In this document: positions 17,471 to 43,218 of the stretch, in pieces
Layout of the letters: every line of letters begins with the position of its first letter
How positions within the stretch are numbered: the stretch's first letter is position 1
Assembly: GCA_035574475.1 (NCBI GenBank)
Contig: DATLYR010000164.1
Span: 1-61,502, forward strand
Length of the DNA stretch: 61,502 nt
Direction of reading: 5' to 3'
Source of the DNA: Nevskiales bacterium
Lineage (GTDB): Bacteria; Pseudomonadota; Gammaproteobacteria; Nevskiales; DATLYR01
Position numbers and translations under genes: made by a program
Notes under the pieces: generated by a model
What the model was told of the DNA's origin: nothing
Databases searched by the model: none
Seen by the model: the letters and a program-made list of their open reading frames with translations, nothing else

Positions 17471-17487
17471 GGTCGGTATGGACGACC

Positions 17488-17517
17488 TGTAAGAACCTCG
17501 CCACGGCCCGCGACCAA
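17488..17517 (+). promoter_or_regulatory. putative ECF-sigma promoter (copy 5) upstream of the 17528 membrane protein gene
   Basis: TGTAAGAACCTCGCCACGGCCCGCGACCAAG, 28/31 identical to copy 1. The -10-like element ends 10 nt before the ATG at 17528. Confidence 0.55.
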
Positions 17518-17527
17518 GGTTGACATC

Positions 17528-22778: not shown

Positions 22779-22807
22779 TTTCCTTGCTCCTGTCTTGTTG
22801 GAAACGG

Positions 22808-25684: not shown

Positions 25685-26052
25685 GTTCTCTTTCACTCCT
25701 TCAACTCCCCAGCCGCTGCAGTGCCGACGGCGTGAGGTAGTCCTCATACACGCCCGGGTCATTGACCTTCATGGCGTGCCCGCCCGCCACTTCCCAAACC
25801 TGCTCGATACGCGTCATGCGCTTGGTCTGCCGTTGAAGGCATGCACCGTGGTCCATGACCAATAGGCGTTTCGTCCATCACGAACCCGACCGCGGCCGTC
25901 GTCATAGACGGCATAGGCGCTGGCGACCGATTCCGTTCGCATGAAGGCGGCCCAGGGGGAGGACAGCAGTCCGGCGCCGGCGATCCGGCGTAGCGATCGC
26001 CGCAGGAATGCGCGACGGCTGCGCGAGAGGACGCTTTCCATCTCGCCTCTCG

Positions 26053-26391: not shown

Positions 26392-26728
26392 CTGCTTGCT
26401 CCGCTCACTGCCATCCTACGTTGCTTCTGTCTGAACTCTACTTTTCCTTGGGAAGGGGTTTCACCACTCGCGCGGGTAGAAGGGGCGCAACCGATGGGGG
26501 GACAGTCGGGTAGTGGCGCCGGGCGGCAGGACTTTGGAAACATTTGGGCATAAACTACAAACGTGATCCGCGCCACGGTGCTGCAACGCAGCAGCATCGA
26601 TCCCCCGATGTGTGGCGAGGATGCTCCGGCCTTCAGGCCGGAGTGACTCACAAGACAAACGATATTGGAGACAGACAAGCCAATGCTGCGCCGCTTTTCC
26701 CAAAACGGGCAGCGCTCGGGGACCCGCC

Positions 26729-29575
26729 ATGACCAAATCCGTACCCAAGCAACTGCGCCCGGTGCCCGCGACAGATAATCCACCCACCCAGAGCGCCACC
26801 CCAGTCCGCCAGAAGCTCTTCGTCACCACCAAACTGCGCCCGCCCACCAACAAGGCGAACCTGATCGAGCGCCCGCGGCTGATGGAGATCCTCGGCCACA
26901 CCCTGTCGCGCAAGCTGGCGTTGATCCACGCGCCTGCCGGCTTCGGCAAGACGACGCTAGCCGCGCAGTGGCACGACCGGCTTCACGCCACGGGCATCAC
27001 GGTCGCCTGGCTGGCCATCGATGCCGCCGATAACGACCTGGAGCGTTTCCTCGCCTACGTCGTCGAGGCGATCCGCGCCGCCGAGCCGGACATCGGCGCG
27101 GGCCTCACGGAGGTGATCGAGTCCAATCCCGGCAACGCCGCCGAGTTCGTGCTGGGGGACCTCATCAACGAGTTCGAGCTCTATGACAAGGAGTTCGTAC
27201 TGTTCCTCGACGACTGGCACCTGATCCATGAGCCCAAGATCCACCAGGCCCTGGAGCTGTTCCTCTCGCGCGTGCCGCCCAATTTCCACTTGGTGGTGAC
27301 CAGCCGCAGCCGGGCCGGCATTCCTCTGGCGCGCCTGCGGGTGCAGAACGAGTTGGTGGAGATCAATGCCGCGGACCTGCGCTTCGACTACACGGAATCG
27401 AGCACCTTCCTCTCGGACGCGAAGGCGCTGCAGCTGGGCGCCGAGGACCTGGAGGTCCTGTGGCGCAGCACCGAGGGCTGGGTCGCCGCGCTGCAGCTCG
27501 CCTCGATCTCCCTGCGCAGCGCCGGCGACCGGGATCGCATCCTGCGCTGGGTGGCGGGCACGCCCCACGATATCGGCGAATATCTCGCCGAGAACGTGCT
27601 GGACAGCCTGCCGAAGGACCTCGTCGACTTCATGCTCAAGACGAGCATCCTCGGACGGCTCTCCGGCGAGCTCTGCCGCGCCGTCACCGGCGAGGCGGCC
27701 AGCGCCCAGTTCCTGGATGCGCTGGAGCGGCAGGAGCTGTTCCTGCTGCCGCTCGATGAGGAGCGGCAGTGGTTCCGCTACCACCACCTGTTCGCCCGCT
27801 TCCTGCAGCGCCGGCTGGAAAGGGAGCACCCCGGCCTGATGCCCAAGCTGCATCTCGCCGCCTCCGACTGGTTCGCCGCCCACGGCCAGACGGCGGAGGC
27901 GCTGGCCCACGCCCTGGCGGCAGATGAGGTGGAGCGGGCCATCGCCCTGGTGGAGAAGGACGCCATGGCACTGATGCAGAACAGCTACATGTCCACCCTG
28001 CTCGGCCTGGTGGCGCAGCTGCCCCAGGCCCGGCTGTTCGACCGGCCCATCCTGCAGACCGCCGTCGCCTGGGCCCACTGCCTCACCCACCACCCGCACG
28101 AATCCGAGGAGGCGCTGGCCCACGTGATCCGCGTGGCGTCGACGCAACCCCCGCAGACGCAGAAGCTGCTCCTCGGCGAGGCCAACGTCATCCGCGCCTG
28201 CAACGGCGTCTATGCTGACCGCATCGACGACGTGGAGACCATGGTGAGGCCCTGCCTCAACGAAAGCGCCATCTATTCGCCCTGGGTCGTCGGCGTGGCG
28301 GCCAACATCCTGACCTACCGCCACATCCACACCTACCAGTTCGACAAGGTGGCACCGCTGCAGACCTGGGCACGCGACTACCAGGACCGCGCCCAGGGGC
28401 TGTTCAGCGGCGTCTATGGCCGCTGCTTCTCCGGCATCGCCGCCTGCTGGGCCGGCGACCTGGCGCTGGGCAAGAAGCACTTTCTCGACGCGCTGGTGCT
28501 GGCCCGGGACACCGCCGGCCGGCAATCCCACGCCGCCCGGCTCGCCGGCGCCCTGCTCGGGCAACTGAAGTACGAAGCCAACGAGCTGGAGGAGACAGAG
28601 CAGCTCCTGCAGGAAAGCCGCATCCTGGGATTCGAGGGCGGCGTGGTGGACTTCTATCTGGCGACCTTCATCTCCACCTGCCGGCTTATGGTGCAGAAGG
28701 GCGACTACGCCGAGGCCAGCGCTATCCTGCAGGAGGGCGAGGATACGGCCCGGCATCTGCGCCTCGACCGCCTGGCCATGGCGGTGGCCGGCGAGCGCGT
28801 GCGGCTCAGCCTACTGGTCGGAGACATCCGTGGGGCGGAACGTACCCTAGCCGACTTCGACGGGCGTTTCGCCGGCGCGGAGCCCCCCGTCGCCGGCATC
28901 GCTGCCCAGATCTGGGACTACCGGGAGATGGCCCGGGCGCGGCTGCTGTGCGAACAGGGATATCCGGAACAGGCGGTGACCATCCTGCGCACCCAGTCGC
29001 GCCGCGCCCAGGACAGCGGGCGCAAGTACCATGAGGTCGCCATCAATGTCCTGCTGGCCATTGCCCTGGATGTGGCCGGCCAGGGGGCGGACGCGGAGGA
29101 GACGCTGGCGCGCACCGTCGCCGACGCGGTCCCGCGCGGCATCATCCGCACCTTCCTCGACGAGGGACCGCGCGTGGTGGTGATCCTGGAACGCCTGCGC
29201 GAGAAGGCGCGCCGCCATCAGGCGGCCGCCGGCGGGCTGCCGGAGTTCGGCGCCTCGGCCAATCTGCTGGTCACCACCAGCCGCCACCCGGACCGCGGAC
29301 TGCCCTTGCTCGTCGCCTCGCGAGCACCCGCAACTTCAACGGAATACGGCGCCCGCACCCGCGCCCCGTTCGACGACAGCCTGAAACGGCGCGAGATCGA
29401 CATCATCCGCTTCCTCGACCAGGGCCGTTCCAACAAGGAAATCGCCCGCGCGCTGGGCATCAGCGTCGATACGGTGAAGTGGTACCTGAAGGCGATCTTC
29501 TGCAAGCTGGGCGTGGCCCGTCGCGGCCAGGCCATCGCCGAGGCGCGGCGGTTGCGGTTGCTGGATGAGCCGTGA
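26729..29575 (+). CDS. large ATP-binding LuxR-family (MalT/LAL-type) transcriptional activator
   Basis: Start MTKSVPKQ at 26729. Walker A HAPAGFGKTTLAAQW, a Walker B-like FVLFLDDWH, a long helical/TPR-like middle, and a C-terminal LuxR HTH (REIDIIRFLDQGRSNKEIARALGISVDTVKWYLKAIFCKLGV). Confidence 0.85.
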   Translation: MTKSVPKQLRPVPATDNPPTQSATPVRQKLFVTTKLRPPTNKANLIERPRLMEILGHTLSRKLALIHAPAGFGKTTLAAQWHDRLHATGITVAWLAIDAADNDLERFLAYVVEAIRAAEPDIGAGLTEVIESNPGNAAEFVLGDLINEFELYDKEFVLFLDDWHLIHEPKIHQALELFLSRVPPNFHLVVTSRSRAGIPLARLRVQNELVEINAADLRFDYTESSTFLSDAKALQLGAEDLEVLWRSTEGWVAALQLASISLRSAGDRDRILRWVAGTPHDIGEYLAENVLDSLPKDLVDFMLKTSILGRLSGELCRAVTGEAASAQFLDALERQELFLLPLDEERQWFRYHHLFARFLQRRLEREHPGLMPKLHLAASDWFAAHGQTAEALAHALAADEVERAIALVEKDAMALMQNSYMSTLLGLVAQLPQARLFDRPILQTAVAWAHCLTHHPHESEEALAHVIRVASTQPPQTQKLLLGEANVIRACNGVYADRIDDVETMVRPCLNESAIYSPWVVGVAANILTYRHIHTYQFDKVAPLQTWARDYQDRAQGLFSGVYGRCFSGIAACWAGDLALGKKHFLDALVLARDTAGRQSHAARLAGALLGQLKYEANELEETEQLLQESRILGFEGGVVDFYLATFISTCRLMVQKGDYAEASAILQEGEDTARHLRLDRLAMAVAGERVRLSLLVGDIRGAERTLADFDGRFAGAEPPVAGIAAQIWDYREMARARLLCEQGYPEQAVTILRTQSRRAQDSGRKYHEVAINVLLAIALDVAGQGADAEETLARTVADAVPRGIIRTFLDEGPRVVVILERLREKARRHQAAAGGLPEFGASANLLVTTSRHPDRGLPLLVASRAPATSTEYGARTRAPFDDSLKRREIDIIRFLDQGRSNKEIARALGISVDTVKWYLKAIFCKLGVARRGQAIAEARRLRLLDEP

Positions 29576-29755: not shown

Positions 29756-30220
29756 TCACTGCGCCCGCAACGAGCCCCGCCCTTCGAGCCCGTCGCGGTA
29801 CAGGAAATCGGGTTCGAAGCGAAAACCGGGCAGCCGGCCGAAGTCGGCGGGCCGCAGGTTGTGCGCCTGCAGCTGCGTGTATCCGGCGTGTGCCAGGCTG
29901 TCGAGCGTGAACTCCATGATTTCGTGCGGGGTCATTTCCGGGCTGAACAGCGGCCGCTGCCTCTGGTCCCTCGCGGCCGCCTCCAGCGGCGCGCCCTTGC
30001 GGATCCCTTTGATGAAGTAAAGCGCTTGCAACGCGGGACCGTCAGCGGTCCAGGTCTCGATGTTGCCGCGCCGGAACCGGCTCCACGCAATTTGCGGATC
30101 CACGGTGTATGGATCGCCCAGTCCGACGCGCCCGGGTTTCGTCCCGTTCGGGGCGGCGCACCCCGCCGACAAAGCGAGAACCATGAGCGCTGCGGCATGC
30201 CGAGGCATCGCGGTCGTCAT
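29756..30220 (-). CDS. lipoprotein of unknown function, probably frameshifted near its 3' end
   Basis: Lipobox LALSAGC. After ..DGLEGRG the +1 frame continues plausibly (AGLVAGAVIAQRLQLIMYLGTREHYYGKHLEDVARIIRSIDVGG*) down to 29646. The likely slip site is a G-run at about 29775-29790. Confidence 0.5.
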   Translation of the reverse strand: MTTAMPRHAAALMVLALSAGCAAPNGTKPGRVGLGDPYTVDPQIAWSRFRRGNIETWTADGPALQALYFIKGIRKGAPLEAAARDQRQRPLFSPEMTPHEIMEFTLDSLAHAGYTQLQAHNLRPADFGRLPGFRFEPDFLYRDGLEGRGSLRAQ

Positions 30221-30905
30221 GGGGAGCGCTCCAGATAGCTGCGCACCATCGCCCGGTCCTCGGCATCGGGCTCGAGCTCCAGGTAGCGCCCCAGGAGCCG
30301 CCGCGCCTCCTGCCTTTCACCGGATTTCAAGGCCAGCAGGCCGAGGGCGCGGTAGGCTTCGGCAGAAACGTCGGCGTACGGCAGCGCTTTGCGGTATGCC
30401 GCCTTGGCCTGCTCGTCGTCCCCCGGCTTGCCGCGAAGGCGGTAGAGCTCTTCCTGATCCCTTTCCCGCAGCAGCGCCTGCCAGAGCTTGGCCGCCTCGC
30501 GCGCGTCGTAGCCCGCCGCGGTGGCAAGATCGAAACCAATCTCGTCCGCCTCCCGCTCGGCATCCCGAGAGAACTTAAGATGCTGCCAAGGGTGGCGAGC
30601 TGCGCGACGTCCTGGACATAGCCCGGCGCGCCGGCCATGCCACTCAACAGGCCGAAGTACGTGGACAGATCGGATTTGCGCCGTACGTCGCGCCACGCCT
30701 GGAGGGTGTGCCGGCGCAGGTAGTCGCCCAGCTCGTGTCCGAGCACGTAGGCCAGCTGCGCCTCGTTCTCGGCGCGGCAGCAAACCGCTCCAGACCTGCA
30801 TGACCCCGTTGGGCGCCATGGAGGCGTTGAACTCGGAAACGCGCATGAGGTAGACGGGCACGTCGCTGCAGCGCGGCCCGGCGAGATGGCCGTCTTCCGG
30901 AATTC
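30217..30905 (-). pseudogene. M48-family metallopeptidase with TPR tail: N-terminally truncated, two frameshifts, mutated HExxH
   Basis: Frame A gives ..VYLMRVSEFNASMAPNGVMQVWSGLL. Frame B gives LGHELGDYLRRHTLQAW..., so HExxH has become HELGD. Frame A resumes with FSRDAEREADEIGFDL... plus TPR-like repeats. Confidence 0.65.
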
Positions 30906-30958: not shown

Positions 30959-32041
30959 TCAAGGCAAGATGGCGACCTTGATGACGCCATCGCGCTGGTT
31001 GCCGAACACCTCATACGCCTTTTCAATATCGTCCAGTCTGAAGCGATGGGTGATCAGTGGCGTCATGTCGACCCGCCCCGACTGCACAACATTGATCATG
31101 CGGCGCATGCGCTCCTTTCCGCCCGGGCACAGCGTCGTGATGATCTTGTGGTCGCCGACACCGGCCGCGAAGGCGTCCACCGGAATCACGAGGTTGCCGG
31201 AATAAACACCGAGGCTGGACAATGTGCCGCCCGGACGCAGCACCCGCAGAGCGTTCTCAAAGGTGACCTGGGTGCCCAGCGCCTCGATGGCAACATCGAC
31301 CCCTCGACCATCGGTCAGGCTTGCGATTTCCGCGACCGGATCGACCTCCTTGTAATTCACCACGATGTCGGCCCCCATGCGCTTTGCCATTTCCATGCGG
31401 GACGGCACCGAATCTACCGCGATGATGGTCGTAGCCCCTTTCAGCTTGGCCCCTGCAATGGCGCACAGGCCGACCGGACCGCAGGCGAAGACGGCCACCG
31501 TGTCGCCGATGCCGACCTTCGCCCGCTCGGAGGCTGAGAAGCCGGTCGACATGATGTCCGGGCACATGAGCACCTGCTCGTCGGTCAGGCCGTCCGGAAT
31601 CGGCGCCAGGTTGACCATGGCGTTGGGCACCAGGAGATATTCAGCCTGTGAGCCATCCATGCTGTTGCCGAACTGCCAGCCGCCCGCCACCTTCAAGCCA
31701 TGCTTCGCATGGCCGCCGTCCTGCGCACCGCAACCACAAAGCGAGCCATAACCGTAGCCGCTGGGCGTGAGTGCCGGCACGACTACCCGCTGCCCTTCCG
31801 TGTAGTCTTTGACACAGGAGCCGAGTTTTTCGATGACACCGATGGGCTCATGGCCAAAGACCACGCCTTCCTTTTCCACCGGCAGCTCACCCTTGAGGAT
31901 ATGGACGTCGGTGCCGCAGATCGTCGTCATGGTGATGCGGACGAGAGCGTCCAGCGGCCCCACCTCGGGGATGGGAATCTCGTCGAGAACCAGGCGACCC
32001 TTTCCAACAAAGCGTGCTGCTTTCATTCTCTTCGGAAACAT
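30959..32041 (-). CDS. Zn-dependent medium-chain alcohol dehydrogenase (secondary-alcohol dehydrogenase-like)
   Basis: 360 aa. Motifs CGTDVH, GHEPIGVIE, FACGPVGL and AVDSVPSRMEMAKRMGA are present. A GGGGGAGA RBS precedes the ATG at 32041. Confidence 0.9.
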   Translation of the reverse strand: MFPKRMKAARFVGKGRLVLDEIPIPEVGPLDALVRITMTTICGTDVHILKGELPVEKEGVVFGHEPIGVIEKLGSCVKDYTEGQRVVVPALTPSGYGYGSLCGCGAQDGGHAKHGLKVAGGWQFGNSMDGSQAEYLLVPNAMVNLAPIPDGLTDEQVLMCPDIMSTGFSASERAKVGIGDTVAVFACGPVGLCAIAGAKLKGATTIIAVDSVPSRMEMAKRMGADIVVNYKEVDPVAEIASLTDGRGVDVAIEALGTQVTFENALRVLRPGGTLSSLGVYSGNLVIPVDAFAAGVGDHKIITTLCPGGKERMRRMINVVQSGRVDMTPLITHRFRLDDIEKAYEVFGNQRDGVIKVAILP

Positions 32042-32093: not shown

Positions 32094-32522
32094 TCATGCC
32101 GGCCGGGCCTCACAGGCACGGCCGGTACTGCATTCCGGACAACGTAGGCAAAAGCTCCGATTGAGGAGATGGCCGATGACCAAGCACAGGCTGCCGGCCA
32201 CCGTCACCGGCATCTCCCACTCCTCGCCGAACATCGCATGAGCGACGAAGGCGGCGAACCCGATCTGCGCCACGCCGCCGACGATCAGCAGCAGCGGCGC
32301 CAATCGGCGATGCAGGCAATAGCCCGGCAAGGCGGCCAGTGCAGCAGGGATGACCAGCCCGATGGCCAGAATCTGGTGAGTCGCCTCGCTGCCCGGCAGT
32401 ACGGATGCGAAGGCCGGCAGCGCCGCAATCAGGAAAGGCAGGCCGAGGCAGTGGAGCAGACAGACCAACGATGCGGAAATGCCTATGGCATCCCATTCGA
32501 CACGTACAGTGTTGGCGTTCAT
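32094..32522 (-). CDS. MerC-domain membrane protein with a Cys-rich C-terminal tail
   Basis: 142 aa with 4 TM helices. SASLVCLLHCLGLPFL fits the MerC-family Cys motif. The tail is NRSFCLRCPECSTGRAC. Confidence 0.65.
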   Translation of the reverse strand: MNANTVRVEWDAIGISASLVCLLHCLGLPFLIAALPAFASVLPGSEATHQILAIGLVIPAALAALPGYCLHRRLAPLLLIVGGVAQIGFAAFVAHAMFGEEWEMPVTVAGSLCLVIGHLLNRSFCLRCPECSTGRACEARPA

Positions 32523-32593: not shown

Positions 32594-34870
32594 TCAGGCC
32601 CCCGCCATTTCCTTCCTGAGCGCTTCCAGCTGCGCTTCCAGGGCGGCGATACGACGATCCTTGGGATTGGAGATCCTCACCCCGCGCAGCTCGCTGGCCT
32701 TCATGACCACCCGTTCGCCCCCGGGCGGCGTCGCATAGATCTCGCTGTCGTTGCCCCAACTGCCGAAGTAGGGCAATTCCTTCGGCGGCTCGTCCTTCAC
32801 CCACTGGGCGACAAAAGTGTCGTAGGGAATACCGCGGGCCTTGCGCGCCTGGCGTTCGGCATCGCGGGCGGCGCGGGTGGCATCCTCGTCCACCGCCAGG
32901 GTCTGGGGATCGAACACCACCTTGTAGATGCGGCTCGCCAGCTCGGGCGAGACCAGCTTCTCCTCCACATCCTTCATGACCAAGGCGGGCGAGCGCTCCA
33001 GCACGTCGCCGTAGCCGCCGCCAGCGCCCTGGCAGATCATGTAAATCTCGCCCTCGTGGCATTGCTCGAAGTTCATGCCGGCGTCCTGCATGATGTATTT
33101 GGCGCCGGGGATGGCCTGCTCGTTCATCAGCTCCACCATGCTGAACTTGAACAGTTCCGGCTGGCTCTTCAGGATGTCGAAGATGTTGATGCCCTTGATC
33201 TTGGCCAGCGGGTAGGCGGGGCAGCCGTAGCCACCGAACAGCCCGTAGGCCGACGGATGCTTGCCGCCGCACTGGCCGGTCATGAAGCCGAAGTTGTCGG
33301 TGCCCTTGACGGTGGAGACCTGCTCGTAGCCCATGCCGCCGCGGTACTTGCCCCAGCCCACCCGGTCCTTCGCCAGCTCCTGCGCCACCAGGCGCACGTA
33401 GGGCAGCTCCTCCTCCGCCACCTCGAACTCGCCGGTGTCGGACATGTAGCCGAATACCGGCGACAGCGAATGCTCGCCGTCCATGTTCTCGCGCGCCCCA
33501 CCGCCGTTGCCATTGATGTCGGCGCAGAAGTTGCCAGTCACCTCCAGGTGCTGGGTCAGGCCACCATAGACGAAAGTCGCCGGCTGGTTGTAGTGGTTGG
33601 CGTTGATGGCGGTGTAGCGCTTGGGCAGGCAGTAGGCGAACTTCGCCAGCACCATGCCGGGCGTGGACAGCGCGCGGAAGATGGGGATCAGGCTCATGGC
33701 GTTGGGCGCATCGACGGATGCGTCGATGAGCGAGTTGCGGTCGGTGAGCACCTCGATGGGGCTCAGCACGCCCTGGTTGGCCGGCAGATCGGGCCACACG
33801 TAGAGCACCAGGTTGGTCAGCAGGCAGGCCTTGACCGAGGCCAGCGCCGAGTTGATGGAGCGGTTCGACAGCTCGGGGCTGGCGCCGCGCAGATCCCAAA
33901 TCATCCGGTCGCCCTTGACGGTGATGGCCAGCGGGAACTTCGCCAGGATGTGCTCGCGCAGGTCGCCGTCGATCCAGGTGTTGATGCGGCAGGTGCCGTC
34001 CGGCAGCTCGGCGACACGGCGCCGCACTTCCGCCTCCGTATCCTCGAGAGTCTTGCGCAGGGTGGCGATGAGGTAGTCCTTGCCGAACTCCTCGATGATG
34101 GCCAGCACCCGCTCGCGCAGGCGCAGCACGGCGTGCAGCTTCACCTTCATGTCGGCCAGCTGCAGCTTGGGATCGCGCACCGAGTTCTGCAGGAAGTTGA
34201 CCAGGTCGCGCTTGAGCTCGAAGTTCTCCACCACCTTGAAGGGGCACATCTTCAGCCCCTCGTCGAACTTCGACTCGGCGATGGACGGCATACCGCCGGG
34301 TTCGATGGCGCCGTTCTCGCCCTCGTGGATGGTGGATCCCAGCCAGCACACCAGCTCCCCCTTGTAGAACAGCGGGATGAGCATGCTCTGGTCGGTGTTG
34401 TGGATGTTGCCGTAGCGGGAGTCGTTGTGGATGAAGCCGTCGCCCTCGCGCACGCCCACCGTCGGATCGTTCTTCCAGTACTTGAGGATGAACTTCACCG
34501 GATAGTGGCAGACAGCGGCGAAGGGCACGATGCCGTGGGGTCCCACCTGGGAAAGATCGCCCGAGGCGGTGAATACGGCGGACACCAGATCACCCCATTT
34601 GGCGCCGGGAGCCACGCCCATCTGCTCCACCATGTTGAAGGTCTCCTGCAGGGCGGAGCTCAAGCGATCGCGCACCAGGCTGATGCGATGGAGATCGAGC
34701 TCGCCGCTGCTCAGCAGCCGTTCCTCGGCCGGCGAGCGGGGCGAGATGCTGTGGTTGCGCATGATTTCGTCGTCGGGCGCGTAGAACAGCTGGTTCTCGA
34801 TGAGGAATTGATTGACCAGCTCCTGGTCGGCGACGGAGAGTTTGCCGGCATTTCCGTTTGAGAGATCCAT
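32594..34870 (-). CDS. ATP-dependent ketone carboxylase, hydantoinase-B/oxoprolinase-type subunit (AcxB-like)
   Basis: Start MDLSNGNAGK at 34870, 758 aa. It shows the HyuB-family pattern (DPKLQLADMKVKLHA, GGGARENMDGEHS, GGGYGD) and has a long C-terminal coiled tail. Confidence 0.9.
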   Translation of the reverse strand: MDLSNGNAGKLSVADQELVNQFLIENQLFYAPDDEIMRNHSISPRSPAEERLLSSGELDLHRISLVRDRLSSALQETFNMVEQMGVAPGAKWGDLVSAVFTASGDLSQVGPHGIVPFAAVCHYPVKFILKYWKNDPTVGVREGDGFIHNDSRYGNIHNTDQSMLIPLFYKGELVCWLGSTIHEGENGAIEPGGMPSIAESKFDEGLKMCPFKVVENFELKRDLVNFLQNSVRDPKLQLADMKVKLHAVLRLRERVLAIIEEFGKDYLIATLRKTLEDTEAEVRRRVAELPDGTCRINTWIDGDLREHILAKFPLAITVKGDRMIWDLRGASPELSNRSINSALASVKACLLTNLVLYVWPDLPANQGVLSPIEVLTDRNSLIDASVDAPNAMSLIPIFRALSTPGMVLAKFAYCLPKRYTAINANHYNQPATFVYGGLTQHLEVTGNFCADINGNGGGARENMDGEHSLSPVFGYMSDTGEFEVAEEELPYVRLVAQELAKDRVGWGKYRGGMGYEQVSTVKGTDNFGFMTGQCGGKHPSAYGLFGGYGCPAYPLAKIKGINIFDILKSQPELFKFSMVELMNEQAIPGAKYIMQDAGMNFEQCHEGEIYMICQGAGGGYGDVLERSPALVMKDVEEKLVSPELASRIYKVVFDPQTLAVDEDATRAARDAERQARKARGIPYDTFVAQWVKDEPPKELPYFGSWGNDSEIYATPPGGERVVMKASELRGVRISNPKDRRIAALEAQLEALRKEMAGA

Positions 34871-34906
34871 TGTCTTGCTCCTTGAGATTCTTCGTGTCCC
34901 GCGATT

Positions 34907-34978
34907 CCGTCGTTCCCGCGGAAGCGGGAACCCAGGGTTCTGCGTACGCTTCTGGATTCCCGCTTCCGCGGGAATGAC
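34907..34978. repeat. two inverted copies of a 28-nt REP element in the carboxylase intergenic spacer
   Basis: CGTCGTTCCCGCGGAAGCGGGAACCCAG (34907-34934) and the reverse complement of CGTCATTCCCGCGGAAGCGGGAATCCAG (34951-34978). They are 26/28 identical, and each copy is itself a hairpin. Confidence 0.7.
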
Positions 34979-34980
34979 GG

Positions 34981-37125
34981 TCACTCAGCGCTTCGTCCCT
35001 GACTGCGCTCGAACCACACCGCCCCGTAGTTAGAGGCATGGAAGGTCCATCCCGGCTCCACCAGGTAGGTCGTCGCCCGCGTCGTCACCACCGCCGGCCC
35101 TTCGATGAACGATCCGGGCTCGAGCGCCGCCTCGTCGTATACCCGCGTCATCAGCGGCCCGTCGTGGCCGACGTAGTGGCAGAGGCGCTCGCCGACGCTG
35201 TCCGCCGTCACCTTCCGCTCCAGCGGCTTGATGTTCTTGAAGTCCACCTTGTCCAGCGGCACATAGCTCGTCACCCGGATGGTGTTGATGCGCACGCCCG
35301 ACTCCGTGGCCTGGCTGCCCTCGCCGAAGCGCTCGCCGTAACGCTGGTGAAACTGCCGGATCAGCGTCAGCACGTCGTGGGCCGAGTTGATGCGCCTGAG
35401 GTCGGTGGCGACCGCCGTTTCCACGCGCTGATTGCCGTAGCGCATGTCGAACTCGAGCCGGTGGGCGACGTTCTTCGGATCGACGCCCTGCCGCACCAGG
35501 TCCTCCCTGCCCCGCCGCTCCAGGTCCTCGATGGTGGAGTTGAGGCGTTCGTAGTCGTTGAGCAGCGCCTTCAGACCGGTGTGGAACAGCACCGTGTAGG
35601 TGGATTTCTCGTGGATGTGCAGCTGGTCCACGTTGCCGGCGCCCAGCGCGGAGAAGACCGAGCTGAAGGGCGGCGCCAGCACCTTGGAGACGCCCAGGGC
35701 GTTGGCGATGCCGCAGCAGTGCAGTGGGCCGTTGCCGCCGTAGGCGAGGATGGTGAAGTCCTCGGGCGCATAGCCGCGGGAGCGCAGCTCGGTGGCGATG
35801 CCGTTGGCCATGTTGTGGTCCACCGTCTCCTTGATGATCTTGGCGATGCCGATGACATCCATGTCGAGATCGTCGCCGAGGGTCTCCTCGATGGCGAAGC
35901 GGGAACGCGCGGGATTGAGCCTGATGCGGCCGTTGGCGTAGTTTTCCGGGTCCAGGTAGCCGAGCAGCAGGTCCGCGTCGGTGACGGTGGCGCGCATGCC
36001 GCCCTGGTCGTAGCAGGCCGGGCCGGGGTCCGAGCCGGCGCTCTCGGGCCCGATCTTCACCGCGCCGTAGAGACGATCGTAGCTGGCGATGGAGCCGCCG
36101 CCCGCACCCAGGGTGACCAGATGCACCATGGGCACGCTCACCAGCCAGCGGTCGATCACCGGGTGGAAGTCGTAGTGCTTCTCCCCGCCGGCGGTGACGA
36201 TGCCGATGTCGAAGCTGGTGCCGCCCATGTCGGTGGCCACCACGTTGCCCAGCTCCCCCTCCTCGGCCAGCAGCTCCGAGGCGGCGATGCCGGCCACCGG
36301 GCCCGAATGCACGGTCTGCAGGGCGTCGGTGGAGTTGAGCTGGGCCAGCCCGCCGGAGTTGTGGTTGATCAGCATCGGCCGGGTGTAGCCGTTGGCGCGC
36401 AGGTTCAGCTCCAGCGAGGAGAGGCCGTGGTACATGACGTTGTGCAGGAAGCCGTCCACGATGGTGGAGGTGGCACGGGTGTACTCCCCCTTGCGTCCGG
36501 CCACCTGGTGGGACAGCAGCATGGGGATGGCGCCCAGCAGATAGTCGGGATACTCCTCGCGGAAGATGGACTGGACGGCCAGCTCGTGCTCGGGATTGAC
36601 GACGCTGTTGGCCAGCATCACCACGATCGTCTCCGCCCCTTGGTCCACCAATTCCCACAGCGCCTCCCTCACCCCCGCCTGATCGAGGGCCAGCAGCACC
36701 TCGCCGTTGTAGCCGATGCGCTCACGCACCGTGCGGATCATGGGGATGGGCACCAGCGGCTCGGGACGCCGGGCGCGCGGCAGATCGCGCTGCAGGGAGA
36801 AAGGCAGCCCTTCGCCGTAGCCGCGCCCGCGCGAGATGGGCACGATGCTGCCGTAGCCCGCGGTGCATAGCAGGCCGATGCGCGGTCCCTTGCGCTCGAT
36901 CAGGGCATTGGTGCCCAGCGTCGTCGAGTAGCGCACCGATTCGGCATTGGCGAGCAGCTCCGGCACATCGATGCCCAGCTCGCCGCAGGCCACGTCCAGG
37001 GCGTCGTTGAAGCCCAGGGCCAGATTGTGATGGGTCGTCAGCGCCTTCGCCTGCACATATTTGCCGTTGTGGGAGACGAAGCAGTCGGTGAAGGTGCCGC
37101 CGATGTCTACCGAGATCCTGTTCAT
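34981..37125 (-). CDS. ATP-dependent ketone carboxylase, hydantoinase-A-type subunit (AcxA-like)
   Basis: 714 aa. MNRISVDIGGTFTDCF, DMGGTSFD and GAGGGS are ASKHA/HyuA nucleotide-binding motifs. Confidence 0.9.
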   Translation of the reverse strand: MNRISVDIGGTFTDCFVSHNGKYVQAKALTTHHNLALGFNDALDVACGELGIDVPELLANAESVRYSTTLGTNALIERKGPRIGLLCTAGYGSIVPISRGRGYGEGLPFSLQRDLPRARRPEPLVPIPMIRTVRERIGYNGEVLLALDQAGVREALWELVDQGAETIVVMLANSVVNPEHELAVQSIFREEYPDYLLGAIPMLLSHQVAGRKGEYTRATSTIVDGFLHNVMYHGLSSLELNLRANGYTRPMLINHNSGGLAQLNSTDALQTVHSGPVAGIAASELLAEEGELGNVVATDMGGTSFDIGIVTAGGEKHYDFHPVIDRWLVSVPMVHLVTLGAGGGSIASYDRLYGAVKIGPESAGSDPGPACYDQGGMRATVTDADLLLGYLDPENYANGRIRLNPARSRFAIEETLGDDLDMDVIGIAKIIKETVDHNMANGIATELRSRGYAPEDFTILAYGGNGPLHCCGIANALGVSKVLAPPFSSVFSALGAGNVDQLHIHEKSTYTVLFHTGLKALLNDYERLNSTIEDLERRGREDLVRQGVDPKNVAHRLEFDMRYGNQRVETAVATDLRRINSAHDVLTLIRQFHQRYGERFGEGSQATESGVRINTIRVTSYVPLDKVDFKNIKPLERKVTADSVGERLCHYVGHDGPLMTRVYDEAALEPGSFIEGPAVVTTRATTYLVEPGWTFHASNYGAVWFERSQGRSAE

Positions 37126-37146
37126 TTGCGCGCCTCGTGTATCTGC

Positions 37147-37554
37147 TCAGTGCCCATGGCAGTGCTTGGGCCGGGCATGCACCGGAATCTCGGCCGGCGA
37201 AGTTGCGCCGCCCCAGCTCTGCGCCTTCTCGCGCAGGGATTCCAGATCCAGCTCGATGTCGCGGGCCGGCGGATGGCCCGGCACCAGGTATTCCGTCTCG
37301 ATCATGGTGCCGCAGTGGGGGCAGTAGTACTCCAGCAGCGCGGTATAGGCGGGATCCGGCGCGAAGGTGTATTCGTATTTCTCCGGATCGATCAAGGGCG
37401 GATGAATCTCCTGCGGGTCGCGGTCATGGACCAGCAGCCCGCGCTTGTAGTTGTCCCGCGCCGGGATCAGCTCGTGCTGGCAGGCACGGCAGAACCACAT
37501 CTCGGTCTCGAGATCGATGCCCAGGTATTCCGTGATGTTGACCTTCATGTTCAA
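37147..37554 (-). CDS. small Zn-ribbon subunit of acetone/acetophenone carboxylase type (gamma-like)
   Basis: 135 aa with a Cys4 arrangement: CRAC (22-25) and CPHCG (79-82). It sits between the two HyuA-like genes. Confidence 0.75.
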   Translation of the reverse strand: MNMKVNITEYLGIDLETEMWFCRACQHELIPARDNYKRGLLVHDRDPQEIHPPLIDPEKYEYTFAPDPAYTALLEYYCPHCGTMIETEYLVPGHPPARDIELDLESLREKAQSWGGATSPAEIPVHARPKHCHGH

Positions 37555-37560
37555 TCTTCC

Positions 37561-39492
37561 TCAGTTGCCCTTCGTCAGCAGGATGTCGCTGCTCGCCGTG
37601 ATTTCGAACATCCACCCCTTGCCCACCTTGCCGGTGAAATAGGCCTCCTCCACCAGCGCCGGCCCGCAGGCGGTGGCGCCGGGCGCCAGCTCCTCGACGC
37701 GATACAGCGGCACGGTGATGCGCTCGCCGTCGTGGCCGAGGATCTTGCGGCTTGCGGACGCCTTCGCATCGTGCCGCTCCGCCAGCGGCACGCTGGGGAT
37801 GCGCGCCTTGCGCACCGGCTTGACGGCGCGCAGGTAGAGCGTCGCCCGATCCGAGGCCACGAGCTCGCACGGCAGCATGGCGGCATCGCCGACATCGAAG
37901 ACCGCTTCCTCGTCGCCGCGCTCGCGCAGCAACGACGCCCGTATCGTGCAGTCGGAAAGCTTGGCGCCCTCGGCGAACATGTCCCGTCGCGCCCGCTCCA
38001 CGAGGTGGAAGTAGGCGTGCCGCAACTCCTCGGCGGTGTTGGCGCCGAGCGTCATCTGGTACTCCTGCGACACGTCGGAGAAGTTGATGCCGTAGGCGCT
38101 GAAGACGGCCGCCAGGCGCGGGATGAGCACCCTTCTCACATCCAGCCGGTCGGCCACGGCCGTGGCCGCCAGCGCCCCCGCGCCGCCGAAGCCGGCGAGC
38201 ACCGCGCCGTCCAGTGGCCCGGCAGCATAGGTGATCGCTTGCGCGATCTTCTCCACCCAGGCGTTCTCCATTTCCAGGAGCGCCTGACTCAAGTGCCAGC
38301 CGGCATGGGCGGCCACGTTCTGCTCGATGCTCGCCCGGGCCCGCTCCTCGTCCAGGACCAGGTCGCCGCCGAAATAGCTCGCCTTGTCCAGCACGCCCTG
38401 GAGCAGATACACGTCGGTGATGGTGGCGTCCTTGCCGCCGCGGCCGAAGCAGGCCGGCCCGGGCACCGCGCCGACGGACCGGGGCCCCACCTCGATGCCC
38501 TTGCCGTTGGCCCGGATGATGGAGCTGCCCCCGACGCCGGCGCTATGGACGTCCGCCAGCGGGAAGGCGATCTCCACCTCCTCGCATCGGCCGCGCCGGG
38601 AGCAGCGGATCTCGCCGTTCTCGACGACGCCGATGTCGGTGGTCGTGCCGCCCACGTCATAGGAGACCACCTTGCGATAGCCGTAGTGGTCCGCCAGGGC
38701 GCGGATGCCTTCCATTCCGCCCCGCGGACCGGAGCTGTAGGTCTTCACCGCCGTGGTCTTGGCCACCCGCGCCGAGCCGCCGTCGTTGCGGAAGACAAGC
38801 AGCGGGTTGGTGGTCTTCTGGGACTTGAGGCGGTAGTCCGCCGAGTAGAGGAAGCGCTCCATGGCGGGATGGAGAAAGGCGTTGAGCAGCGCCGTCCAGC
38901 TGCGGCGCACGAAGCGCGCATCGTCGGTGAGGTCGGCGGCGCACAGCAGCGGCATCGCGCCCAGCAGATGGGACGGAAAGCGCTTCTGGATGATCGCCTT
39001 GATGCGCGCCTCCACGCTCTTGAAGTCGCTCGAGCCGACGCTCACCACCACCCGGCTGGCACCGGCGGCGGTGAGCTCATTCACCGCCCTGATGACCTCC
39101 GCATCGAAGGCCGCGGCGTCGAGGGCCGCATCGACCGTGCGCACCCGGTCCCCGACCAGCTCGGCGAAGAGCGGCGCGTGGTGCTCGCCGGCGGACAGCG
39201 CATTCACGTCGCTGTCCGGCGTGCTGATCACCCCCAGCCGCGGCCCCTTGCGCTCCACCAACGCGTTGGTGCCGACCGTGGTCGAGTAGCGGATGTGCTC
39301 CGCCTCCCGCAGCAACCGGCCCACGTCCTCCTTGCCATAGACGCGACCGGAGACCTTCTGCAGCCCCTCGAAGAAGCACTTGCTCAAGTCATACGGCGTG
39401 GTGAGCGTCTTGGCATGATGCACCGCCGTATCGGTGACCACGCAGAAATCCGTCAGCGTGCCGCCGTTGTCGATACTGATTAGCATCCCCAT
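37561..39492 (-). CDS. second hydantoinase-A/oxoprolinase-family paralogue (extra carboxylase subunit, Apc-like architecture)
   Basis: 643 aa. MGMLISIDNGGTLTDFC, YDVGGTTTD and AGVGGSS motifs are present. It is the first gene of the four-gene unit. Confidence 0.85.
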   Translation of the reverse strand: MGMLISIDNGGTLTDFCVVTDTAVHHAKTLTTPYDLSKCFFEGLQKVSGRVYGKEDVGRLLREAEHIRYSTTVGTNALVERKGPRLGVISTPDSDVNALSAGEHHAPLFAELVGDRVRTVDAALDAAAFDAEVIRAVNELTAAGASRVVVSVGSSDFKSVEARIKAIIQKRFPSHLLGAMPLLCAADLTDDARFVRRSWTALLNAFLHPAMERFLYSADYRLKSQKTTNPLLVFRNDGGSARVAKTTAVKTYSSGPRGGMEGIRALADHYGYRKVVSYDVGGTTTDIGVVENGEIRCSRRGRCEEVEIAFPLADVHSAGVGGSSIIRANGKGIEVGPRSVGAVPGPACFGRGGKDATITDVYLLQGVLDKASYFGGDLVLDEERARASIEQNVAAHAGWHLSQALLEMENAWVEKIAQAITYAAGPLDGAVLAGFGGAGALAATAVADRLDVRRVLIPRLAAVFSAYGINFSDVSQEYQMTLGANTAEELRHAYFHLVERARRDMFAEGAKLSDCTIRASLLRERGDEEAVFDVGDAAMLPCELVASDRATLYLRAVKPVRKARIPSVPLAERHDAKASASRKILGHDGERITVPLYRVEELAPGATACGPALVEEAYFTGKVGKGWMFEITASSDILLTKGN

Positions 39493-40280: not shown

Positions 40281-41771
40281 TCACTTGGAGCCCATCTCCC
40301 CAATCACCGACGCCAAGGTGAATATTCCCTGCTGAATCTGCTCGATCGTCAGACTGGCATATCCCAAGATCAACCCAGCTGGCCGAGATTGCAAATGCAA
40401 CTCTGGCTTGGCAAACAGCGGCGACACCGGGTAGACGCCCACGTCCTGGTCGCGGGCAGCGGCCACCAGTGCGGACTCGTCCTGCGGTAGCAGGAAAGGC
40501 AGCCACAGCACCACATGCAGCCCAGCCGCCGTACCGCTGATTTGAACGTTAGCCGGCAGGTGGCGCGCGATAGCGTCCAGCAATGCCGCACGGCGTCGCT
40601 CGTTTTCTCGACGCATGCGCCGCACATGGCGTTCATAGGCGCCGCTGTCGATCAATGAGGCCAGCGCGCGCTGCTCCAGCACGGGCGCGTGGCGGTCGAC
40701 CAGCCGCTTGGCCTGCTGGAACACCGGCACCAGCTCAGGCGGCAGCACCAGGTAGCCGAGTCGCAGCTGCGGTGACAGCGCTTTGGAAAAGGTGCCGATA
40801 TAGATCACGCGGCCATCGGTGTCGATCGATTGCAGTGCGTCGATCGGGCGCTGGCCGTAGCGGAACTCCCCATCGTAGTCGTCCTCGATGATCCAAGCGT
40901 CGTGGCGTTGCGCCCACTGCAGCAATTCCAGACGACGGCTGATCGGTAGCACGCCACCCAGCGGGAACTGATGCGACGGTGTCACGTACGCCAGGCGGGC
41001 ACGCTCATCTTCGGGAAGATGACGTGTGTCCAAGCCGTGCCCGTCCACAGGGTTGGCCAGGAGACGGGCACCAGTGGCTTCAAAACAGCGCCGTGCCATC
41101 AGATAGCCGGGGTCCTCGAAGACAAATCCGTCACCTGCATTCAGCAGCAGCCGTGCACACAGGTCGATGGCTTGTTGCGAGCCGTGCACTACAAGGATTT
41201 GCTCGACCTCGCAGGCAATTCCCCGAGCGCGCCGCAGATAGCCCTGTAAGGCACGTCGCAGTGCCCCGTCACCTTCGGGTGGACCGTAGTACAGGCGATG
41301 CTGCTGGCGCAGCAACTCAGCCTGGTAGGCGCGCCGCCAAGCCAAAGCAGGGAAGTCCCGCGAAGCCACCGCGCCATACAGGAAGTCGAAGCGTGCGGGT
41401 TCAGCGGGAGGCAGTGCGACCATGCCCATCCCCGCAACGCGGCGCCCAAAGTCGGACAGGGTTGGCGCGGACTGGGCGCGCCTGCCTGCAACCGCCTCTT
41501 GTGGTGCAGATGGCGCCACCGGGCGGCCGGCGACCCGCGCTACCCGCCCTGGAGACGTAATGAGAAAACCCTCGGCTGCGAGTTGCTCGTAGGCGGCGGT
41601 GACGGTGGTGCGCGACACCCCCAGTTCGGCCGCCAGGGCGCGCGTGGATGGCACCCGAGCACCCGGTGGCAGCGTGCCGTCGGCGATCTGCGCGCGTAGC
41701 AGATCGTAGATGCGGCGTCCAGCGCCGGTGGCACCAGGGCGGTTGCCGGTTGGTCTGTGAAACTGGCACAT
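40281..41771 (-). CDS. MocR/PdxR-type regulator (GntR HTH fused to a PLP aminotransferase-like domain)
   Basis: 496 aa. The N-terminus has LPPGARVPSTRALAAELGVSRTTVTAAYEQL. The C-terminal fold-type-I domain has the FSKALSPQLRLGY lysine motif. Confidence 0.9.
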   Translation of the reverse strand: MCQFHRPTGNRPGATGAGRRIYDLLRAQIADGTLPPGARVPSTRALAAELGVSRTTVTAAYEQLAAEGFLITSPGRVARVAGRPVAPSAPQEAVAGRRAQSAPTLSDFGRRVAGMGMVALPPAEPARFDFLYGAVASRDFPALAWRRAYQAELLRQQHRLYYGPPEGDGALRRALQGYLRRARGIACEVEQILVVHGSQQAIDLCARLLLNAGDGFVFEDPGYLMARRCFEATGARLLANPVDGHGLDTRHLPEDERARLAYVTPSHQFPLGGVLPISRRLELLQWAQRHDAWIIEDDYDGEFRYGQRPIDALQSIDTDGRVIYIGTFSKALSPQLRLGYLVLPPELVPVFQQAKRLVDRHAPVLEQRALASLIDSGAYERHVRRMRRENERRRAALLDAIARHLPANVQISGTAAGLHVVLWLPFLLPQDESALVAAARDQDVGVYPVSPLFAKPELHLQSRPAGLILGYASLTIEQIQQGIFTLASVIGEMGSK

Positions 41772-41860
41772 AAAAAATCATCAAAACTGGACCTTATCAT
41801 TGTGCCGGTTATGAGTGAGAGTAGCGAGGATTCTGTACTTCTCTCATTCGCCTGCCGACG

Positions 41861-42484
41861 ATGTACATCCCTGCTCACTTTGCTGAAAATCGACCCGAGG
41901 AACTCGGCCGCATCATCCGTGCGCACCCGCTGGGCATGCTGGTCACACACGGCAGTGATGGACTGGACGCCGACCACATTCCGTTCGAGTTCGATGCCGA
42001 CGAGGGACCGCACGGCGTGCTCACGGCCCATGTGGCGCGAGGCAACCCGCTGTGGCAGCGCTGTCCGACGGGCACGCCGGTGATGGTCGTGTTTCGCGGC
42101 GCCGAGGCTTACATCTCGCCCAACTGGTATCCGAGCAAGCACGAGGCACACCGCCAGGTGCCGACCTGGAACTACGAAGTGGTGCACGCGCACGGCACCC
42201 TCACCGTGCACGATGACGAGCGTTTCGTTCGCCGCATCGTTGCGCGCCTGACGCGGCGGCATGAGGCGGCCGAACCCAAGCCCTGGAAGATGGGCGACGC
42301 CGCGCCCGAGTACATCGACAGTCTGCTGCGCAACATCGTGGGCATCGAGATCGCCATCACTTCGCTGGTGGGCAAGGTCAAGCTCAGCCAGAACAAGGAA
42401 GCGCGCGATCGCCTCAGCGCCGCCGACACGCTGGAGGCGCGGGGGCGAGGTGAAATGGCGCAGGCCATGCGCCAGGCCCGGTGA
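41861..42484 (+). CDS. FMN-binding PaiB-family protein
   Basis: MYIPAHFAE..., ISPNWYPSK, VPTWNY and KLSQNK motifs are typical of PaiB. Confidence 0.85.
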   Translation: MYIPAHFAENRPEELGRIIRAHPLGMLVTHGSDGLDADHIPFEFDADEGPHGVLTAHVARGNPLWQRCPTGTPVMVVFRGAEAYISPNWYPSKHEAHRQVPTWNYEVVHAHGTLTVHDDERFVRRIVARLTRRHEAAEPKPWKMGDAAPEYIDSLLRNIVGIEIAITSLVGKVKLSQNKEARDRLSAADTLEARGRGEMAQAMRQAR

Positions 42485-42600
42485 GCGATCAATGCACTGT
42501 GCTGGGAGCCCCTGGACGGTACTCACGAGGCGAGTCAAGCACCCGCACGTCGGAACAGTTCCGGCTTGCCAACGTCACCCTACTAAAGAACAGCAACACT

Positions 42601-43218
42601 ATGTCATTCATTCCCTTCCTAATTGCCGCCGTCGTTCTTGCCATCACGCCCGGTCCGGGGATCGCCTACGTTGTCGCTCGCACGATTGCCGGCGGCCGTT
42701 CGGAAGGCTTGGCCTCGTGCTTCGGCACCGGTATCGGTGGGCTGCTCCACGTGTTCGCGGCGGCGTTGGGCATATCGCTGGTCATTGCGCAGTCCGCTGT
42801 GGCATTTAACCTGCTCAAGTACCTCGGTGCGGCCTATCTGATGTACCTGGGCCTTCGCATGCTGCTGCGTAAGGACAAGCCGCTCACGGTCGACGCCGTG
42901 ACGGCTCAAGGTGCGCGCCGCGCCTTGGTCGAGGGCATCGTGGTTGAAGCCTTGAACGTCAAGACGGCCTTGTTCTTCCTGGCGTTCCTACCGCAGTTCG
43001 TTTCGCCGGCTGAGCACCTGGTGCCGCAATTGGTGCTCCTTGGATGCATCTGCGTGGCGCTCAATACGCTCGTCGACGTCATGGCGGTTCTTGCGGCTCA
43101 TCGCTTGCTTCAGTCAAGTGCTGCCCGTGCTGCGCGAGCCAAACTGATGACCCGTGTGTCGGGCATCACCATGTTAGGTTTGGGCGCCTTCCTTGCGCTG
43201 GCACGGCGTCCAGCGTAG
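42601..43218 (+). CDS. LysE/RhtB-family amino-acid exporter
   Basis: ATG at 42601. AITPGPG, GAAYLMYLG and NVKTALFFLAFLPQF motifs are present. Confidence 0.85.
   Translation: MSFIPFLIAAVVLAITPGPGIAYVVARTIAGGRSEGLASCFGTGIGGLLHVFAAALGISLVIAQSAVAFNLLKYLGAAYLMYLGLRMLLRKDKPLTVDAVTAQGARRALVEGIVVEALNVKTALFFLAFLPQFVSPAEHLVPQLVLLGCICVALNTLVDVMAVLAAHRLLQSSAARAARAKLMTRVSGITMLGLGAFLALARRPA

Follow-up and report, generated by a model that had tools for sequence, protein, structure and literature searches.

The 61,502-nucleotide contig DATLYR010000164.1 of a Nevskiales bacterium (assembly GCA_035574475.1), referred to here in its full length as the window, carries four minus-strand genes for an enzyme related to the acetophenone carboxylase (Apc) of Aromatoleum aromaticum EbN1. 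Together with a fifth gene further downstream they appear to encode a five-subunit, biotin-independent, ATP-dependent ketone carboxylase of the Apc type, distributed over two operons, which would act on acetone or butanone in the catabolism of secondary alcohols. We put the probability of this reading at roughly 0.58, on the strength of gene content and sequence comparison. Its parts differ in firmness. The subunit identities, the membership of the Apc branch, the existence of an epsilon gene and its homology to ApcE, the families to which the partner genes belong and the substrate-pocket differences that run through the clade are established, and the architecture with its epsilon subunit is highly probable; a short aliphatic ketone as the substrate is favoured somewhat above even odds. 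The five subunit genes are the following.

37561-39492, minus strand: alpha' subunit, an ApcA-like HyuA paralogue of 643 aa and putative bicarbonate kinase (NCBIfam ApcA, 316 bits; PDB 5L9W_b, E = 2.5e-81).
37147-37554, minus strand: gamma subunit, an ApcB-like Zn-ribbon protein (Acetone_carb_G; 5L9W_C, E = 3.2e-33; four Cys).
34981-37125, minus strand: alpha subunit, an ApcC-like HyuA paralogue of 714 aa and putative ketone kinase (5L9W_B, E = 5.6e-153; RERIGYNG).
32594-34870, minus strand: beta subunit, an ApcD-like HyuB protein of 758 aa (Hydantoinase_B, 7e-79; 5L9W_A, E = 2.4e-84).
24839-25762, minus strand: epsilon candidate, an ApcE-like TIM barrel of the uroporphyrinogen decarboxylase (URO-D) type, in an open reading frame (ORF) of 307 aa (synteny, profile-profile comparison and fold match).

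Clusters of the Apc branch, of which a single enzyme has been characterised, contain four genes, or five, arranged as apcABCD(E), encoding alpha', gamma, alpha, beta and, often outside the operon, epsilon (Weidenweber et al. 2017, PMC5214803). According to the same work, gamma is short (~130 aa), with four cysteines and no N-terminal extension, each of the two HyuA paralogues has the ASKHA motifs for ATP, and only alpha has an R/KERiDsxG fingerprint. The window has this order, HyuA, Zn-ribbon, HyuA and HyuB, with an epsilon gene that is present, albeit displaced. Its gamma protein has cysteines at C22/C25 (CRAC) and C78/C81 (CPHC) and aligns end to end with 5L9W_C, whereas the 168-aa gamma subunit of acetone carboxylase (Acx) has ~50 extra N-terminal residues. 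The PHOSPHATE 1, PHOSPHATE 2 and ADENOSINE motifs are found in both HyuA paralogues, those of the 643-aa protein reading DNGGTLTD, DVGGT and GAVPGP. This protein lacks the fingerprint, which occurs as RERIGYNG at residue 134 of the 714-aa protein; the former is thus identified as alpha' and the latter as alpha. The Asp/His/Asp/His metal tetrad of Apc-beta is kept. The beta subunit departs from the described length of ~685 aa, shorter than the Acx HyuB and given as approximate only (PMC5214803), in measuring 758 aa (clade median 749, true Apc 685-686).

Profile and structure databases agree with this assignment. Pfam finds Hydantoinase_A and Hydant_A_N in both HyuA-like proteins (4e-61 and 5e-72) and Acetone_carb_G in the small protein (3.5e-35). 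The best NCBIfam models of the four proteins are ApcA, ApcB, ApcC and ApcD, in that order, with secondary matches to caprolactamase; all four scores lie far below the equivalog cut-offs for bona fide acetophenone carboxylase (316 against 1250, 141 against 250, 549 against 1500 and 309 against 1500 bits). The best PDB match of each protein is the corresponding chain of the Apc core, 5L9W, with the E-values listed above. Acx chains are weaker throughout, at 3e-33, 1e-10, 3e-80 and 1e-39 for A to D, or 118, 45, 274 and 140 bits against 277, 118, 514 and 287 for the Apc chains; alpha is 37.6% identical to EbN1 Apc-alpha and 28% to Acx. With four core genes, two HyuA paralogues and a gamma gene of 133-135 aa in second place, the locus also differs in layout from acxABC. 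An earlier note on this DNA had called the cluster Apc-like rather than a classical acxABC operon, and the best match of every subunit to its Apc counterpart bears this out. The architecture is correct but not new, since PMC5214803 had already defined apcABCD(E) clusters, many of them without an adjacent fifth gene.

A phylogeny, which the earlier note had proposed as a check, was built for alpha by a distance method (neighbour joining, 200 bootstraps) from 27 taxa grouping with the window enzyme, EbN1 and five other true Apc sequences, Acx, the caprolactamase subunit CapA and N-methylhydantoinase. The alpha' sequence was left out, its inclusion having given a long-branch artefact. The window clade, that is the relatives grouping with the window enzyme, and the true Apc clade each receive 100% support, and the two stand together against Acx, CapA and N-methylhydantoinase with 76%. 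The enzyme thus falls in a sister clade of true Apc that is separate from it and very widespread; no functionally characterised member of it was found in the literature, and a 2026 bioRxiv preprint on marine acetone carboxylation covers canonical acxABC only. More than 3000 relatives of alpha' at E ≤ 1e-10, nearly all generically annotated, were retrieved, and a scan of species-representative genomes yielded at least 575 loci of this enzyme type. Their hosts include Nevskiales (Solimonas, Nevskia, Panacagrimonas, Hydrocarboniphaga), Rudaea, Rhodocyclaceae, Sterolibacteriaceae, Zoogloea, Zavarzinia, Celeribacter and Porticoccus. Among the matches listed, the clade spans Gamma-, Beta- and Alphaproteobacteria, and the nearest named relative is a Rudaea metagenome-assembled genome (MAG; identities of 67, 70, 85 and 78% for A to D). 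Eighty loci were fetched for context (single loci, of this and other sets, are cited below by numbers with the prefix L); the A-B-C-D order recurs in essentially all of them and is therefore not a chance arrangement.

True Apc was represented by a reference set gathered through ApcB from 5L9W, namely Georgfuchsia toluolica and five metagenomic loci, 74-90% identical to EbN1 ApcB. Against these, the window proteins reach identities of only 30-32% for A, 46-52% for B, 36-38% for C and 29-31% for D. The difference extends to the pocket proposed for the ketone in Apc-alpha, which consists of L81, F281, N282, P285, I333, Q344 and T345. The acetophenone pocket is not retained in the window, whose alpha reads T/V/H/P/I/H/L at these positions against L/F/N/P/I/Q/T in true Apc. 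Five of the seven positions differ, L81, F281, N282, Q344 and T345 of all six true Apc sequences being replaced by T, V or I, H, H and L. Each signature is characteristic of its clade, LFNPIQT occurring in 6/6 true Apc and that of the window being fixed in 72 of 73 clade members. Phe281 is Val or Ile throughout the window clade; the equivalent residue in Acx is Ile. The clade beta subunits are, moreover, ~70 aa longer than those of true Apc, through an N-terminal extension of ~28 aa and a C-terminal one of ~45 aa. The C-terminal extension (32594-32740 in the window; '...NPKDxRIAxLEaxL...'), which is conserved and ends in a coiled-coil-like motif, is found in all window-clade betas and is absent from true ApcD; it may be an oligomerisation or docking element.

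The earlier note had stated that there was no fifth, ApcE-like gene. A homologue of ApcE, the ~34 kDa epsilon subunit, does exist at 24839-25762 on the minus strand, outside the region which that note covered. Its probable start is Met36 (25657), giving 272 aa, and it has no Pfam or NCBIfam match. Among the 56 loci with enough flanking sequence, 42 have an epsilon homologue on the same strand within 2.5 kb downstream of D (median gap 80 nt); apcE occupies the same place in true Apc loci, with a product of 290-308 aa that likewise has no Pfam domain. In the window it lies 7 kb from ABCD, beyond a MalT-type regulator, and the close relative L087 shares this layout of ABCD, convergent MalT and then epsilon. 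The family hidden Markov model of epsilon aligns collinearly with ApcE, albeit with weak scores, and a comparison by hhalign with five genuine ApcE sequences scored 41.8 (E = 3.8e-5, 101 columns), whilst the controls gave no more than 20.1 (30 column shuffles), 12.6 (reversed alignment) and 11-15 (unrelated families). An AlphaFold2 model (predicted local distance difference test score, pLDDT, 94.5; predicted template-modelling score, pTM, 0.92) retrieved with Foldseek, as its top three matches, the ApcE chains of 9FOU (E = 1e-7 to 4e-7, TM 0.58-0.67), followed by the uroporphyrinogen decarboxylase fold at 1e-3. No publication behind 9FOU was found in the literature. The relationship is visible only in such profile-profile and fold comparisons: a jackhmmer search over all ORFs of the fetched loci converged at 50 clade members without reaching ApcE, and a narrow profile of 19 epsilon sequences gave chance matches only against the PDB sequences. 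The gene is a distant, displaced homologue of ApcE.

The genes surrounding the carboxylase are as follows.

32094-32522, minus strand: MerC-like membrane protein, 142 aa, 71 nt after beta (Pfam MerC, 4.9e-22).
30959-32041, minus strand: Zn-dependent secondary-alcohol (isopropanol-type) dehydrogenase, 360 aa (PDB matches).
26612-29575, plus strand: MalT/LuxR-type STAND regulator, 987 aa, between the two operons (Pfam TPR_MalT, GerE and AAA_16).
22808-24838, minus strand: acetoacetate-CoA ligase, 676 aa, abutting the epsilon gene (TIGR01217 equivalog).
21594-22841, minus strand: BktB-type beta-ketothiolase, ~393-415 aa (NF006552; Thiolase_N and Thiolase_C).

The best PDB matches of the alcohol dehydrogenase (ADH) are the NADP-dependent secondary-alcohol or isopropanol dehydrogenases of T. 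brockii (Thermoanaerobacter) and C. beijerinckii (1.9e-69), threonine dehydrogenases following at ~1e-35. It keeps the Zn ligands and the pocket residues Trp110 and Leu294-Cys295 of the T. brockii enzyme. In place of the NADP-specifying Gly-Ser-Arg it has Asp-Ser-Val, which suggests that it is NAD+-dependent. The ligase exceeds its equivalog cut-offs (TIGR01217, 797.7 bits against 520.9; NF002937, 926 against 639), and the thiolase exceeds the subfamily cut-off of NF006552 (688 against 565 bits) and falls just below that of the BktB equivalog (676.5 against 725). The regulator scores 391 bits with the NCBIfam MalT model, below the cut-off; 19 of the 80 related loci have a MalT-like gene, with 57% identity in the nearest relative (L001), and in the close relatives L087 and L089 it follows ABCD convergently. 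Other clade members adjoin sigma54/GAF activators. A ligase homologue (≥50% identity) follows epsilon in 13 of the 45 loci with enough flank for this count. The PaaK-type benzoylacetate-CoA ligase Bal, by contrast, occurs in true Apc loci alone. It is absent from all 80 loci of the window clade and from the window, which was also checked for the beta-keto-acid cleavage enzyme (BKACE) and CobW, again with none found. An acetophenone-responsive two-component system likewise does not accompany the genes, the regulator being of MalT type.

A pathway can be proposed in which operon 1 (39492 to ~30959, minus strand) would supply alpha', gamma, alpha, beta, the MerC-like protein and the ADH, and operon 2 (25762 to 21594, minus strand) epsilon, the acetoacetate-CoA ligase and the thiolase, both operons flanking the MalT-type regulator and perhaps controlled by it. 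The ADH would oxidise isopropanol or 2-butanol to acetone or butanone. By analogy with Apc, alpha would phosphorylate the ketone enolate and alpha' bicarbonate, at the cost of one ATP each, with a division of labour that is presumed to be the same. Epsilon, which is essential in Apc, would be needed here too for productive C-C bond formation. The resulting acetoacetate or 3-oxopentanoate would be activated by the CoA ligase and the CoA ester cleaved by the thiolase to acetyl-CoA, plus propionyl-CoA in the case of butanone; a thiolase of the BktB type fits 3-oxopentanoate derived from butanone. Carboxylation of acetone to acetoacetate by the locus is therefore plausible from its ADH, ligase and thiolase context. 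Rhodococcus ruber Chol-4, which carries apc1-4, grows on isopropanol and not on ethylbenzene (PMC6498646), although this is a single anecdote. The earlier note had warned that the substrate could not be assumed to be acetone. The caution was reasonable, but acetone, which the note played down, is now the leading candidate.

Several observations weigh against this proposal. Two of the three residues proposed for the bicarbonate site of alpha' are not those of Apc (S/G for E248, D for K281), so the mechanism of Apc may not transfer unchanged. No epsilon gene lies nearby in 14 of the 56 loci, and pairwise BLASTP of epsilon gave no significant match to genuine ApcE (E = 0.26 and 0.58). Between merC and the ADH gene stands a hairpin resembling a terminator; both genes were sought as neighbours across the clade and are not conserved but specific to the window, and the acetoacetate-CoA ligase is linked in only ~29% of loci. 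The sequence occurs in runs of metagenomic DNA only and in no RNA-seq run. Finally, the neighbouring genes of other relatives suggest larger hydrophobic substrates; they encode a 546-aa acyl-CoA ligase, BKACE, acyl-CoA dehydrogenases or the DUF1302/DUF1329/MMPL trio for uptake.

The last point makes larger methyl ketones a serious rival, the DUF1302/DUF1329/MMPL trio being typical of the uptake of hydrophobic substrates. The same five-subunit carboxylase would then act on hydrophobic methyl ketones of C5 and above, arising for example in subterminal alkane oxidation or from isoprenoids, and acetoacetate would arise only indirectly. The relatives are mostly Nevskiales, including hydrocarbon degraders, and have the uptake genes, acyl-CoA dehydrogenases, the 546-aa ligase or BKACE beside ABCD. 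The Apc pocket opens to a wide, solvent-exposed hollow (PMC5214803), in which a variable tail could be tolerated, and a signature that is invariant across such differing contexts may recognise only the methyl-ketone head group. In the window, however, none of these uptake, acyl-CoA or BKACE genes is present and an isopropanol-type ADH and an equivalog-level acetoacetate-CoA ligase are found instead, whilst BKACE was seen in one window-clade locus only. For the enzyme of the window we regard larger ketones as unlikely, though they are the strongest of the competitors. It is less probable still that the four-gene core works without epsilon and that the 24839-25762 gene, the ligase and the thiolase form an unrelated ketone-body or polyhydroxybutyrate-type operon which happens to lie nearby. 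Many Apc-like operons do lack a fifth gene (PMC5214803), as do the surroundings of ABCD in the 14 loci mentioned, and in the window 7 kb and a regulator gene separate it from ABCD. Against this stand the 42 loci with a homologue directly after D, the similarity of the gene to ApcE in fold and profile, and the lack of activity of the Apc core when epsilon is missing.

It is very improbable that the enzyme is a true carboxylase of acetophenone or other aryl ketones and an orthologue of Apc of Aromatoleum. Apc is indeed the best-match family of every subunit, and the gene order is the same. Yet the scores are far under the equivalog cut-offs, the large subunits are 30-38% identical, the clade is a separate one with full support and five of the seven pocket residues differ, Phe281 being replaced by Val; neither a Bal-type ligase nor a PAS-kinase/LuxR two-component system, CobW, or ethylbenzene or phenylethanol dehydrogenase genes are present. 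The absence of Bal and the non-aromatic pocket signature thus argue against the aryl ketones that the earlier note had counted among its candidates, and these two features, with the isopropanol-type ADH, the acetoacetate-CoA ligase and the BktB-type thiolase, are the reasons for favouring acetone or butanone. We give as little credence to the view that the enzyme is no carboxylase but an ATP-dependent hydrolase of the hydantoinase, lactamase or oxoprolinase type, or catalyses some other ATP-dependent transformation. HyuA and HyuB domains are common to these hydrolases and the secondary NCBIfam matches are to caprolactamase, but hydrolases of the family have two subunits, with no gamma, alpha' or epsilon (PMC5214803), and the partner genes here belong to 3-oxoacid activation and thiolysis, not to amino-acid or lactam metabolism.

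The gene calls and spacers of the locus can be described more closely. The four core genes were found in the positions and transcription order given by the earlier note and with its lengths (643, 135, 714 and 758 aa), and with G+C at third codon positions of 0.85-0.92 all four look like real genes. They are separated by 6-12 nt (A-B), 21 nt (B-C) and 110 nt (C-D). Gamma is 135 aa long from a TTG codon or 133 aa from an ATG two codons in. The ORF of beta runs to 796 aa from a GTG (32594-34984), but the ATG at 34870, which gives 758 aa, is the right start, because the extra 38 N-terminal codons translate a hairpin-containing spacer and because orthologues in related loci are called at 757 aa. 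The spacer element is as follows.

34913-34974, no strand assigned: inverted pair of 18-nt palindromic hairpins (TTCCCGCGGAAGCGGGAA) in the 110-nt alpha-beta spacer, two exact copies on opposite strands.

The chance expectation for this pair is 0.22, and no further copies occur within the window. Read as protein, the spacer gives 'IPAEAGIQ...', which lengthens the beta ORF artificially. The hairpins are possibly an RNA stabiliser or attenuator. A second, GC-rich hairpin of terminator-like appearance lies at 32092-32075, after the stop codon of merC; promoter and terminator scans at the locus stayed at chance level. Downstream of the ADH gene, at 29756-30861 and on the same strand, are genes for a 214-aa M48/TPR protein with the look of a BepA-type protease fragment and for a 154-aa protein with no family match. 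Upstream of the carboxylase operon, at 40281-43218, there is a gene for a MocR-type regulator (GntR plus aminotransferase), divergent from those for an FMN-binding protein like PaiB and for an exporter of the LysE type; the regulator is probably unrelated to the carboxylase. Elsewhere in the window, a gene of the MbnB/TglH/ChrH family (DUF692) overlaps a DUF2063 gene at 13048-14753, a pairing typical of bufferin or methanobactin-like modification systems for ribosomally synthesised and post-translationally modified peptides, and 10839-11903 encodes an ArsS-like radical-SAM protein whose C-terminal domain is DUF3641.

The related loci offer some further observations. No merC gene lies beside any of the 80. 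Four of the six true Apc loci (L081-L084) have a gene for a CobW-type metallochaperone GTPase next to them, and so have 14 loci of the window clade (L027, L044, L050 and L072 among others), whilst the window has the MerC-like protein instead; either protein could be a dedicated metal-supply partner. The true apc locus of G. toluolica (L081:14714-18701) consists of apcABCDE followed by genes for a short-chain dehydrogenase/reductase, BKACE (PF05853) and CobW, with no Bal-type ligase, and in the window-clade locus L087 BKACE is encoded at 16927-17850, directly after D. BKACE converts a beta-ketoacid and acetyl-CoA to an acyl-CoA and acetoacetate, and for this reason may stand in for the CoA ligase in certain pathways of the Apc type. 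A true-Apc-type metagenomic locus (L085:9400-14900) has a split or frameshifted apcC and no apcE call, either a decaying locus or an assembly error. In several genomes two Apc-like clusters or extra subunit copies, ~50-60% identical to each other, lie between a few kb and 15 kb apart: a full second ABCD in the Rudaea MAG (L001/L040), and B-C-D or a lone A among Solimonas marina (L071), S. terrae (L026) and Sinimarinibacterium (L029). This suggests paralogues with different substrates.

With a single member of the Apc branch characterised, one can only guess at what hundreds of related clusters do; their annotation is either generic or 'acetophenone carboxylase', the latter probably wrong. The locus provides an unusually complete context, with a secondary-alcohol dehydrogenase, a carboxylase, an acetoacetate-CoA ligase and a thiolase round one regulator, and the clade-wide pocket signature separates its enzymes from true Apc. 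It is tempting to extend the proposal to the whole sister clade, whose 575 or more loci would then use the five-subunit Apc architecture, with its two kinase sites and URO-D-like epsilon subunit, on small aliphatic ketones, as a third and widespread way of carboxylating acetone and short methyl ketones; this extension is tentative, with the odds slightly against it. If it holds, enzymes of the Apc and Acx types would have converged on one substrate by different mechanisms, and the labels 'hydantoinase/oxoprolinase' or 'acetophenone carboxylase' would hide a common sink for acetone and isopropanol. Should the prediction for the window enzyme be right, bacteria would have a second, mechanistically distinct type of enzyme with which to consume acetone, butanone and isopropanol, aliphatic and aromatic Apc-type carboxylases could be told apart by a sequence rule, and the poorly understood epsilon subunit could be studied in a second, independent system.

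A number of parallels and differences emerge when the window enzyme is set beside known systems. With Apc (ApcABCDE of A. aromaticum EbN1; core 5L9W, ApcE 9FOU), which carboxylates acetophenone to benzoylacetate whilst converting 2 ATP to 2 ADP and is the sister of the window clade in the alpha tree, it shares the gene order alpha', gamma, alpha, beta, the second HyuA paralogue with intact ATP motifs, a ~130-aa gamma with four Cys, the alpha-only RERIxxxG fingerprint, the metal tetrad of beta and a URO-D-like TIM-barrel fifth subunit. Identity is 30-38% for the large subunits, 46-52% for gamma and, in a structure-based alignment, ~14% for epsilon. The two differ at five of seven proposed ketone-pocket and two of three proposed bicarbonate-site residues, in the ~70 aa by which the window beta is longer, and in their surroundings, the window having an epsilon gene displaced by 7 kb, a ligase of the acetoacetate-CoA type instead of the PaaK-type Bal and a MalT-type regulator instead of a PAS-kinase/LuxR two-component system, and lacking CobW. 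Acx (AcxABC; Xanthobacter autotrophicus 5SVB/5SVC, and 5M45) has in common with it the enzyme superfamily (HyuA, HyuB and a Zn-ribbon gamma), an aliphatic residue at the position of Apc Phe281, probably the ATP-dependent, biotin-independent carboxylation of methyl ketones and likely overlapping substrates (acetone, butanone). Acx, however, consists of three subunits with one HyuA, has neither alpha' nor epsilon, encodes its 168-aa gamma last and activates both substrates sequentially at one ATP site, converting ATP to AMP; its scores with the window proteins are far weaker (274 against 514 bits for alpha, 45 against 118 for gamma). The two-subunit hydrolases CapAB (6YRA), 5-oxoprolinase and N-methylhydantoinase (7HK5) share the HyuA/HyuB modules and ASKHA-type phosphorylation of a carbonyl group, but are hydrolytic, not carboxylating, and have no gamma, alpha' or epsilon. 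In the alpha tree CapA and N-methylhydantoinase fall outside the Apc branch, within which the window clade and true Apc stand side by side.

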